64,000 nucleotides of DNA from Escherichia coli (GTDB taxonomy: Bacteria > Pseudomonadota > Gammaproteobacteria > Enterobacterales > Enterobacteriaceae), in the NCBI RefSeq assembly GCF_030013205.1, contig NZ_CP122648.1; one strand, given 5' to 3'. Made by a program: the position numbers. Position 1 is the first letter of the stretch. Each line of letters starts with the position of its first letter. Below are positions 58,701 through 61,700 of the stretch, in pieces.

Positions 58701-61700
58701 ATGGCGAAGGTAAAACTCGAGGCAATTTGTCTATCCTGAAAAAATCAATGGCTACAAATCAGGCCTGTTGCAATGTTGAGATTGATTCTGATAAAGCTGA
58801 TTATGAATATGTTTATTATTTTTTAAAGACACAATATGATGAGCTTCGCCAGCTATCTTCCGGTGTTAGAAAAAACCTTAATTCTAACGATATAAAAAAC
58901 TACCCTATTCGTTTGCCATCCTCTCTGGACGAACAACGAAAAATTGCCTGTGTATTAAAAGTATTAGATGACAAACTTGCTCTCAACAACCGCATCAACG
59001 CCGAACTGGAAGCGATGGCGAAAACGCTGTATGACTACTGGTTTGTACAGTTTGATTTCCCTGATGCCGACGGAAAACCGTATAAAACCTCCGGCGGTAA
59101 GATGGAGTATAACGCCACGCTGAAACGGGAAATTCCGGCGGGGTGGAATGACTCCATTCTTGGTAAGTTTATTGAGTTAGATCGTGGCGTTACTTATAGC
59201 AAAGAGGATGTTCGAACTCAGGATGATAAAGATACGATAGGCATTCTTCGCGCTACAAATGTGACGGGAAATAATGTTGATATTGATGATTTAGTCTTCA
59301 TTCCTTCTAGTAGAGTAAACGTTAATCAAATGCTAAATAAATTTGACATATTGATCGTGATGTCAAGTGGTAGTAAGGAGCATGTAGGGAAGAATGGCGT
59401 GTATTATTTCGAAAAAAAACATGCATTTGGCGCATTTTGTTCAAAAATTACACCCGTCAGAAAATACAGATATTTTATAAATACATTCCTGCAATCGAAA
59501 TGGTTTAAGTCTTATATAAACAATCAGTGCTTGGGAACTAATATTAATAACCTGACCAATACGCATATCACTAATTGTGAAATCATATGCCCCACTCCTG
59601 ATGTTGTGGCGTTATTCGAGAATAAAATGATGCCAATTTATAATAAACTGGCATCAAACACTCAAGAGAATAGTCATTTAATCCAACTCCGCGACTGGCT
59701 CCTCCCTCTACTTATGAACGGACAGGTCACGGTCAAATAATCCCCGGCGTGGTTTTGCGAGGCGCATTCCAGATCCGCATTGCGCCGCACTCACCGCAGC
59801 AAAACCGCTTGCCGTTCATAACCGATCGCAGTATCTTTCTCCCGCGCCTGCAAAATCAGGCGTCGGGATTAGCCTCCTGAAAACCGTTACAGGCGACACT
59901 TGACGCACCAGCGTCTTTTTTGTGTCGTGCGTTCGGCTACACCTCAATGGCGGGCCGGGCGGGGGCGTCGCAAGACGCGCCGGTTTCCTGTAACGCCGGT
60001 AAGGCTAACCCCGTCCGGTTCCGCCCCCATGAGATTAGCCTCTCTAGTGGCGGACATAATAAACCGTTACAGGAGACGCCCTATGGCTACAATCCTCATC
60101 TCTGACTGCGATTTACTCGATCTATTGTCCGCTCCCTTCAATGCCACCACGGATTTCACCGTCCTGGCCGACTACTGCGCCCGCTTCGCCGAAACCCTGA
60201 TAGAAACCGACGATCCGGCGCTGCGGCTGGCGCTCTGCGGACGGCTTCACGCGGCTCTTGCGCTATTGCAACCCACGCTGCACGACCCCATCCCGCCGCA
60301 TCTGATTGAAAGCCTGACCGTTGATACCCTTCCCGCCACACCAGAGCACTTTATTTCCGAACCAGATTCCTTGTGCGAATACTGCCTCGCGCTGCTCCAG
60401 CTACTGCTGGAACGTCCAGCAGAGCCAAAAACGGAACAAACCCTGACCGGGCTTCTGTGTGAGCTGGTCTGGAATTTCACGGAAGGACTCAAATCCCCGC
60501 GCTGGCTGCGTACCGCCGACGGCGTAAAATTTATCAGTGAGGTGGCCGCATGATGCAACAGGACTGACATTCCGCCAACATTATTGCGGTGCTGAAAAAG
60601 CGGGGAACGCCTCTGGCGGCACAGAGAAAAACTCATTGCGGAAGCGCTGTAAATATCGCCAGAAATCATCTGGTCCTCAAGGTACTTTGATAGCAAAGGC
60701 AAGCAGGCTGGTTCAGTCCAGTGTTTCTCTTCTTGCATTTTCAGAAATGGGAGGCTGGGAGTCTATCGAAATGGTTCGTCGATATGCTCACCTTGCACCT
60801 AATCACCTTACCGAACACGCACGGCAAATAGACTCAGTCCTGAACCCATCGGTCCCAAATTTGTCCCAGTCAAAAAATAAGGAAGGTACTAATGATGTGT
60901 AACTTATTGATTTAAATGGTGCCGATAATAGGAGTCGAACCTACGACCTTCGCATTACGAATGCGCTGCTCTACCAACTGAGCTATATCGGCCCTGAAAG
61001 GACATGTTCACGAACGTGAATCACGGTGGACAAGGTTAAAACTAACCGGGCGATGCGTCAATGGCCTTGTGAATCAAATGGCTACTTTTGCATCACCCGG
61101 TTTTATTTACGCACGAATGGTGTAATCACCAATGCCGATCCACTTGTAAGTGGTCAGTGCTTCCAGCCCCATTGGGCCACGCGCGTGGAGTTTTTGTGTG
61201 CTTACCGCCACTTCCGCACCCAGACCAAACTGGCCGCCGTCGGTAAAACGCGTAGAGGCGTTAACGTAAACAGCGGACGAATCCACTTCGTTAACAAAAC
61301 GCTGGGCGTTGCGCATATCGCGAGTCAGGATCGCATCGGAGTGTTGCGTGCCGTGTTCACGAATATGGGCGATGGCATCGTCAAGATCGCTGACGATTTT
61401 GACGTTCAAATCTAATGACAGAAACTCATCGTCATACTCTTCCGCTTTAACAGCCACCACCTTCGCGGGGCCTGTCTGCAACTGCGCCAGTGCACCTGCA
61501 TCAGCGTGTAACGTCACGCCACTTTCCGCCATTTGTTTGCTTAATGCGGGCAGGAAACTATCGGCGATGTTTTTATTCACCAGCAACGTTTCAACCGTAT
61601 TACATGTGCTCGGTCGCTGAGTTTTCGCGTTGACGATCACTTTTAATGCTTCAGCGATCTCCGCGCTTTCATCAACGTAAATATGGCATACGCCTATACC

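Follow-up and report, generated by a model that had tools for sequence, protein, structure and literature searches.

The thrW tRNA gene is a recognised integration hotspot (PMC7545054). The thrW-integrating phages target this gene downstream of proA (PMC3851460, PMC3306764), the attP of SfI, SfIV and SfV being 46 bp long (PMC3851460), and SfI inserts in tandem at the attL of SfX (PMC3306764). At the same locus, the genomic island GI-thrW of the ST131 strain EC958 is reported to encode the type I methyltransferase M.EcoMIII (PMC4659465). The thrW region was analysed here within a 64-kb stretch of chromosomal DNA (the window, i.e., the whole stretch that was analysed), in which the chromosomal genes are ordered yahC...bet...rcl...ecp...pao...thrW-proA-proB. 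The genome of the swine strain K_EC180 (NZ_CP062203.1) is 99.96-99.98% identical to the window, with a single 1-nt indel near the hsdM/hsdS overlap. The following features adjoin thrW:

60551-60698, + strand: decayed ner/nlp-like HTH gene, its 3' end fused to int' (PGAP HTH pseudogene; alignment to an intact homologue)
60699-60902, + strand: int' pseudogene, C-terminal 67 codons and stop codon of a thrW-specific lambdoid tyrosine integrase (tblastn, Pfam, PGAP)
60699-60744, + strand: 5' segment of int', HK75/SfX/mEpX2-type allele (nucleotide alignments; tblastn against phages, 94%)
60745-60902, + strand: 3' segment of int', SfII/SfV/CP-933H-type allele (nucleotide alignments)
60903-60916, unstranded: 14-nt spacer CTTATTGATTTAAA from the int stop codon to the att core (alignment to SfII/HK75 attP)
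60917-60962, - strand: att core, 46 nt, the 3' 46 nt of thrW (alignment to SfII and HK75 attP)
60917-60992, - strand: thrW, tRNA-Thr(CGU), intact (ARAGORN, anticodon CGT; Rfam tRNA, 71.8 bits)

The sequence of thrW is the same as in K-12. SfII DNA could be aligned without a break from the 3' end of int through the 14-nt spacer into 46 nt of thrW (60917-60962). Indeed, this core shows no difference from the attP cores of SfII and HK75, the spacer is the same in both, and the two attP diverge from the window exactly where thrW goes on. With such an attP layout (int stop codon, 14 nt, 46-bp core), the stub occupies the position expected, after integration, for the 3' end of int in every prophage of this kind.

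When the whole 64-kb window was searched by tblastn with the 387-aa SfII Int, a single match was obtained, residues 321-387 at 60699-60899 (58/67 identical, E 1e-33), the second-best match having E>4. A previous sequence-only reading had described an integrase reduced to its last ~70 codons, of which only the C-terminal region carrying the catalytic Tyr survives. The truncation is real and nothing but residues 321-387 is left, the exact extent being 67 codons plus stop, with a 5' limit at 60697-60699, or 17% of the integrase protein length. The peptide quoted in that reading starts at 60747 and its Tyr codon lies at 60783-60785. The Pfam Phage_integrase profile (PF00589) matches at positions 137-171 of 172 only, with 23.7 bits, a score that falls below the cut-off of 27.1, while in PGAP these coordinates are given as a partial pseudogene, "integrase, incomplete, missing N-terminus". 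The alignment starts at residue 321, directly after the HDLRHTW motif. Residues were assigned by alignment to HDLRHTW...GGW...RRYAHL, and their catalytic roles are presumably those of lambda Int and the lambda-family integrases. On this basis, the stub keeps the active-site Trp and Tyr and is devoid of Arg-I, Lys and His-x-x-Arg, so that the catalytic domain of a functional tyrosine recombinase is incomplete. Because the Arg-Lys-His-x-x-Arg part of the active site is gone along with most of the protein, the stub is predicted to be non-functional as an integrase. A full-length integrase masked by a frameshift or a sequencing error, whose recovery had been named as the observation that would overturn the truncation, was rejected: SfII tblastn finds residues 321-387 only and the upstream DNA corresponds to the ner-like homologue. 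Moreover, positions 60400-61100 are 100% identical in 14 independent complete assemblies, hence the truncation is not a sequencing error. The in-frame sequence upstream is not integrase-related, as already noticed in the sequence-only reading, and the decayed ner-like gene found there is read in a different frame from int'. The intact homologue of this gene, located in a pheV island, encodes 71 aa (Pfam HTH_35, E 1e-32); relative to it, TGG has become TGA at codon 6 and ~65 nt have been lost by internal deletion.

The best phage matches of the int' protein are SfI, SfII, SfIV and SfV, at 87%, and its identity to P22 Int and relatives is 75%; 204 phage records were matched. The two characters expected of a thrW-specific lambdoid integrase were both found, namely the C-terminal identity and the stop-14 nt-46-bp core layout, the latter together with the proA-thrW synteny present in the window. 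Besides, int' is oriented with its 3' end towards the tRNA, the arrangement also seen in the int-attP of SfII and HK75. The sequence-only reading had turned to P4-type integrases for the family of the stub, which proved to be misplaced. BLASTP of int' against the K-12 P4-type integrase IntF gave E 1.7 with no meaningful alignment, and tblastn of IntF and of the integrases of the AZ159 island and of a pheV island against the window returned nothing (E>0.4). The Arm-DNA-bind_3 domain (PF13356) is present in these three integrases and absent from SfII Int and HK75 Int. Hence, neither mark of the P4 type was found, as int' shows no similarity to IntF, has no N-terminus and has relatives devoid of PF13356; a P4-type affiliation was ruled out by the IntF result and by the domain content of the relatives. 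From these comparisons, int' belongs to the thrW-specific integrases of the SfII/SfV/P22 and HK75/SfX types.

The stub itself is a chimera, with ~46 nt of HK75 type followed by 158 nt of SfII/CP-933H type. This is illustrated by the 5' segment, which shares 40/46 nt with HK75 int vs. 26/46 with SfII. Likewise, the first 45 nt are the same as the thrW-proximal stub of strain AZ159 (ST131-like) at 38 positions vs. 25 for SfII. This 5'-type allele is carried by HK75, SfX, mEpX2, HK542, HK446 and mEp043. Further downstream, 154/158 nt of the 3' segment are those of SfII int and, taking the remaining 159 nt of the stub, 155/159 match SfII vs. 96/159 for the AZ159 thrW-proximal stub (~60%, HK75-type). 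The stretch 60744-60916 is 98.8% identical to O157:H7 int genes. More generally, over the 3' 158-159 nt the identity to the int of isolated phages and of resident prophages is 97.5-99%, and this part is free of stops and frameshifts.

The ner-like gene borders a 9.1-kb island in which the following features were recognised:

51784-51795, unstranded: left deletion junction, 12-bp microhomology ATTACGCCAGCA (BLAST, three-way alignment)
51785-59740, unstranded: defence cargo (ORF lists; PGAP products in a 99.98%-identical genome)
51785-52705, - strand: AbiEii (ORF list, PGAP)
52692-53474, - strand: AbiEi (ORF list, PGAP)
to 56856, + strand: hsdR, type I R-M (ORF list, PGAP)
56850-58487, + strand: hsdM, type I R-M (ORF list, PGAP)
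to 59740, + strand: hsdS, type I R-M (ORF list, PGAP)
59831-60553, + strand: P4-like immunity region (Rfam, Pfam, PGAP)
59844-59921, + strand: isrK (Rfam, 68 bits; gathering 50)
59943-60031, + strand: C4 antisense RNA (Rfam, 71.8 bits; gathering 45)
59947-60105, + strand: ash (Pfam Phage_ASH, 30.4 bits; cut-off 26)
60083-60553, + strand: hypothetical gene, 156 aa (PGAP)

The segment next to the stub thus carries the C4/CI RNA, the isrK-like RNA and Ash of a P4-like satellite immunity region, and the PGAP annotation of 51785-60916 lists no primase alpha, sid/delta/psu or cos. The GC profile from 47 to 64 kb was uninformative except for a low G+C content in hsdS.

Since the K-12 yagP region is absent from the window, K-12 could not be used as a reference for the left boundary, and the empty site of LP-26-E1-261 was used (paoD, MFS transporter, hydrolase, LysR, ykgR', yagP-like fragment, thrW). 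There, 456 bp stand in place of positions 51796-60898 of the window (9.1 kb). The right island boundary falls within att identity, as expected for site-specific recombination, and the left one does not. The BLAST match to the native sequence of the empty site ends at 51795 and the match to the AZ159 island begins at 51784, with the native chromosome on the left and the island, which starts at the AbiEii stop codon, on the right of ATTACGCCAGCA, a sequence that includes this codon. A 120-mer spanning this junction was recovered over its full length in 295 of 5426 complete genomes, while other genomes hold the island half only or the native half only, and the two halves overlap by exactly 12 nt. 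In AZ159, the same AbiE + hsdRMS island, 96-97% identical, extends further left up to an integrase of 439 codons with one internal stop (Arm-DNA-bind_3, Phage_int_M, Phage_integrase), located at the far end of the island and followed by a 41-nt thrW 3' copy and a second int' stub. Relative to LP-26-E1-261 and AZ159, one microhomology deletion took away 456 bp of native flank together with the distal thrW repeat and the P4-type integrase of the island. The loss of the distal repeat is explained by this one identifiable deletion at the 12-bp microhomology and not by gradual decay. Because the AZ159 island carries its own P4-architecture integrase at its far end, the int' stub, contrary to the assumption of the sequence-only reading, is not the integrase of the adjacent island.

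As a consequence of the removal of the distal end, no distal thrW repeat is to be expected in the window. As previously stated, the thrW 3' end occurs only once in the window: a pattern search of the window allowing up to 3 mismatches recovered thrW itself only, and blastn-short together with an exhaustive ungapped scan yielded chance-level 12-mers and at most 26/49 matches. The 12-mer at 47841 (E 0.27) was considered as a thrW 3' repeat and judged to be due to chance. A 701-bp query spanning thrW found one location only in the near-identical K_EC180 genome. Besides, tblastn with the SfII, IntF, AZ159 and pheV integrases detected no integrase of any sort other than the stub in the window, hence no cognate full-length one, and the PGAP annotation from paoD to thrW is devoid of intact integrases. 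The window therefore holds neither the attR repeat nor the full-length integrase of an intact element. Left with attL but with neither attR nor an integrase, the segment would not excise by site-specific recombination, which supports the earlier view of an immobile locus in that sense, and it can presumably move only with the flanking chromosome, by homologous recombination or transduction.

The same locus had been called old, which holds in part, the evidence on age being mixed. About 792 genomes carry the ner'-int'-thrW junction and 813, including ST131 (99.9% identity), carry the ash-hyp-ner' segment. Being common to hundreds of genomes, the junctions must either be older than much of the lineage diversification or have been carried along by the flanking chromosome. 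In at least 2761 of 5426 genomes, thrW is accompanied by some int 3' sequence, the breakpoint of which takes several forms, and the stubs differ widely among strains in allele and in length (55 to 921 nt). The word "old" fits the junctions but not the SfII-like sequence: with 97.5-99% identity to phage and prophage int and no decay, this part of the stub is not ancient. A much older and shorter int scar adjoins thrW even at "empty" sites. Indeed, the 69 nt beside thrW in LP-26-E1-261 and beside ptwF in K-12 can be aligned, with 83-84% identity (pairwise E 8e-18 and 1e-15), to the terminal 55 nt of HK75 int followed by the spacer, and these scars still read NGTNTAQEENVV-stop. The 204-nt stub therefore represents a younger layer at a repeatedly used locus.

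Taken together, 60699-60962 is very probably an attL-side scar of thrW lambdoid prophages, chimeric and fused to an island that has lost its integrase. The source phages would come from the SfI/SfII/SfIV/SfV/P22 group and from the HK75/SfX/mEpX2 group, both integrating at the 3' 46 nt of thrW. Because int ends 14 nt from the att core, its 3' end directly abuts the reconstituted thrW after integration, and later deletions sparing the tRNA would leave an int 3' stub. A deletion would first have joined an older HK75-type stub to the ner-like end of the P4-like defence island. The thrW-proximal stub of AZ159, which has the same ner'-int' junction, is of HK75 type throughout and carries TAG at the Tyr codon, looks like this precursor state. 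The 3' 158 nt of the stub would then have been exchanged for SfII/CP-933H-type sequence, most likely through recombination between repeats. In this route, an SfII-type phage would integrate at thrW, between the tRNA and the resident stub, so that its int 3' end, spacer and core would form with the resident stub a ~264-bp direct repeat flanking the newcomer; the prophage would then be lost by homologous recombination within this repeat, with the old 5' part joined to the new 3' part in a hybrid. Strain NT1F10, where an old scar and a core are followed by an SfII-type attP arm, the prophage, a full int and another core, shows the proposed intermediate arrangement. The same pattern would be produced by natural mosaicism of int among phages, or by gene conversion from another strain. 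In a separate event, the deletion at the 12-bp microhomology left attL without attR and without any integrase. A further idea, which we regard as doubtful, is that the stub, by lengthening the direct repeat around a new thrW phage from 46 to ~264 bp, might allow the host to delete the prophage in a RecA-dependent and Int/Xis-independent manner. If so, RecA-dependent curing would overwrite the stub at each prophage loss, accounting for the chimeric alleles, for the stubs in about half of the complete E. coli genomes and for the short scar at empty sites.

Among the alternatives to a prophage scar, the one that survives best, although we consider it quite improbable, is that int', spacer and core form the attachment region of the island itself, captured from a phage attP and travelling with the island. 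Flanking repeats of ~250 bp are predicted by this proposal wherever the island was inserted into an already scarred thrW. The AZ159 island does have int' plus core on both sides, over 253 bp at 90%. Besides, the same ner'-int' junction is found in islands with different cargo on a 90%-identical backbone, and from its constancy across R-M/AbiE and reverse transcriptase cargo, int' could lie in the attachment region of the island. However, the two AZ159 copies differ in breakpoint and allele mosaic. Between cargo variants, identity is ~98-99% from ner' to proA vs. ~90% in ash-hyp, which suggests that the junction is inherited with the chromosome, the cargo being swapped upstream. Finally, a 37-mer of the ner'-int' junction has no exact match in species-representative genomes, an absence that counts against travel with the island but, with one genome per species and an exact match needed, says nothing on other species.

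Retention of the stub for a function, either as the 3' flank of thrW (processing or termination) or through a small protein encoded by the ORF 60537-60902, seems highly unlikely. It is true that at least 2761 of 5426 genomes have int 3' sequence next to thrW, that a shorter scar persists even at "empty" sites, and that a mechanical ORF of 121 aa overlaps the stub. Nevertheless, no promoter-like site was found in 60400-61150 and no terminator-like hairpin on the - strand downstream of thrW, and the folding of the thrW-downstream strand was no better than that of shuffled sequence (z = -0.06). A thrW terminator or a structured RNA antisense to the stub, considered as a candidate, was rejected for the last two reasons. 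The variation of the stub in length and allele among strains and the stop at the Tyr codon in AZ159 also speak against a conserved role, and the sequence gave no sign of a present function. As for a single old element that eroded slowly, distal repeat included, the stub being its decayed P4-type integrase, the position beside a tRNA gene and foreign genes, the P4-like neighbour (isrK, C4, ash) and the missing distal repeat would agree with it, but it is hardly credible given the 87% identity to SfII Int with no IntF similarity, the lack of Arm-DNA-bind_3 in SfII and HK75 Int, the P4-architecture integrase at the opposite end of the AZ159 island, the single microhomology deletion of the distal end and the 97.5-99% identity of the stub 3' part to phage and prophage int.

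As a prophage scar, the stub is real, ordinary and known in kind; it is already a pseudogene in RefSeq, there is nothing new in kind about it, and it matters little beyond annotation hygiene. For annotators, three corrections ensue: the owner of the stub is a lambdoid phage and not the adjacent P4-like defence island, the distal repeat was lost in one microhomology deletion together with the real integrase of the island, and thrW sites regarded as "empty" bear an older int scar. By documenting successive integrations and losses, such layered and chimeric scars could serve to follow prophage turnover at this hotspot across the E. coli phylogeny.

The locus shares with the int-attP of SfII, SfI, SfIV and SfV and of P22 an integrase of the same family (aa identities, 87% for SfII and 75% for P22), the stop-14 nt-46-bp core layout and the target downstream of proA. 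Unlike these phages, the window keeps residues 321-387 only, with no xis, gtr, other phage genes or attR. The integrases of HK75, mEpX2, HK542, HK446, mEp043 and SfX are represented by the 5'-most ~46 nt of the stub and, in AZ159, by a pure stub; the spacer and core of HK75 are those of SfII, whereas its allele is left in the window as the 46-nt 5' layer only. In the CP-933H-type cryptic prophage of O157:H7, an N-truncated SfII-type int likewise abuts thrW in the same orientation, at 98.8% identity (60744-60916). It retains 307 codons together with cI, cro, cII, replication and tail fibre genes, in contrast to the 67 codons and the lack of phage genes in the window. The K-12 CP4-6/ptwF locus occupies the same hotspot; its distal end has a P4-architecture IntF next to a 49-nt thrW 3' copy, which is followed by the old HK75-type scar. 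It differs from the window by having both repeats and a full-length intF, unrelated cargo and no 204-nt stub at thrW. Lastly, ST131 genomes share the ash-hyp-ner' segment with the window at 99.9% identity. We infer that the island version of AZ159 may correspond to the published GI-thrW; unlike the window, AZ159 has a stub of pure HK75 type and still carries the distal thrW repeat as well as the P4-architecture integrase, the latter interrupted by one internal stop.

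Seemingly unoccupied thrW sites carry a 55-nt scar of the 3' end of the HK75-type integrase gene together with the 14-nt spacer, at 83-84% identity. This scar plus spacer lies at two places:

L008 7102-7170: LP-26-E1-261, the strain with the "empty" thrW site
L005 5256-5324: K-12, adjoining ptwF

Given this scar, the thrW-flanking sequence regarded as "native" in E. coli is itself of phage origin. In the ST131-like relative AZ159, which carries the same island, the catalytic Tyr codon of the pure HK75-type stub (L012 11076-11279) is replaced by TAG, and the stub at the far end of the island (L012 324-467) contains internal stops too. 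When they escape overwriting, integrase stubs do decay. Besides, E. coli strains carry two thrW alleles differing by one compensatory T-stem pair (window 60917-60992 versus L008 7171-7246 and L009 4228-4303). The U50-A64 allele is found in the window, K-12 and the SfII and HK75 attP sites, the G50-C64 allele in LP-26-E1-261 and Nord122, and both changed positions, 50 and 64, fall within the 46-nt att core.

The window stub is fused to the last codons of a ner/nlp-like HTH gene (60551-60698), which is decayed by a TGG to TGA change at codon 6 and an internal deletion of ~65 nt. A related island at pheV holds an intact 71-aa homologue (Pfam HTH_35; L015 5636-5851). A P4-like immunity region was also observed 600 bp upstream of the stub, at window 59831-60105, comprising:

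59844-59921: isrK
59943-60031: C4 antisense RNA
59831-59883: match to the c4-a1b1 target, with a sub-threshold score
Inside 59831-60105: Ash-family ORF overlapping the C4 antisense RNA

By annotation, none of the P4 primase, sid, delta and psu genes lies near this region.

Part of the ykgR region occurs a second time just left of the island junction, at window ~51460-51640. PGAP labels this copy a ykgR fragment, and it shares 90% identity with the true ykgR locus and 78% with ykgL-proximal sequence (compared with 32285-32401 and 33072-33224). The copy occurs in empty-site and O157 strains as well and so is older than the island. Elsewhere in the window (~19350-23610, ~28090-29320 and ~34780-35400, with a shift of ~1 nt relative to the near-identical genome), the PGAP annotation of that genome gives a frameshifted fdeC, an ecpA with an internal stop and a LysR gene adjoined by an IS3-family element.

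The 5' part of hsdS (window 58466-58961) does not align to the AZ159 island, which is 96-97% identical elsewhere, and this mismatch suggests that the two restriction-modification specificities differ. In Nord122 (L009 1-3047) and another strain (L014 1-2339), an RNA-directed DNA polymerase gene (>1000 aa) is present instead of AbiE and hsdRMS, and is followed downstream by the same ash-hyp-ner'-int'-thrW end. The slot upstream of this end is a variable-cargo one, resembling the defence hotspots of satellites.
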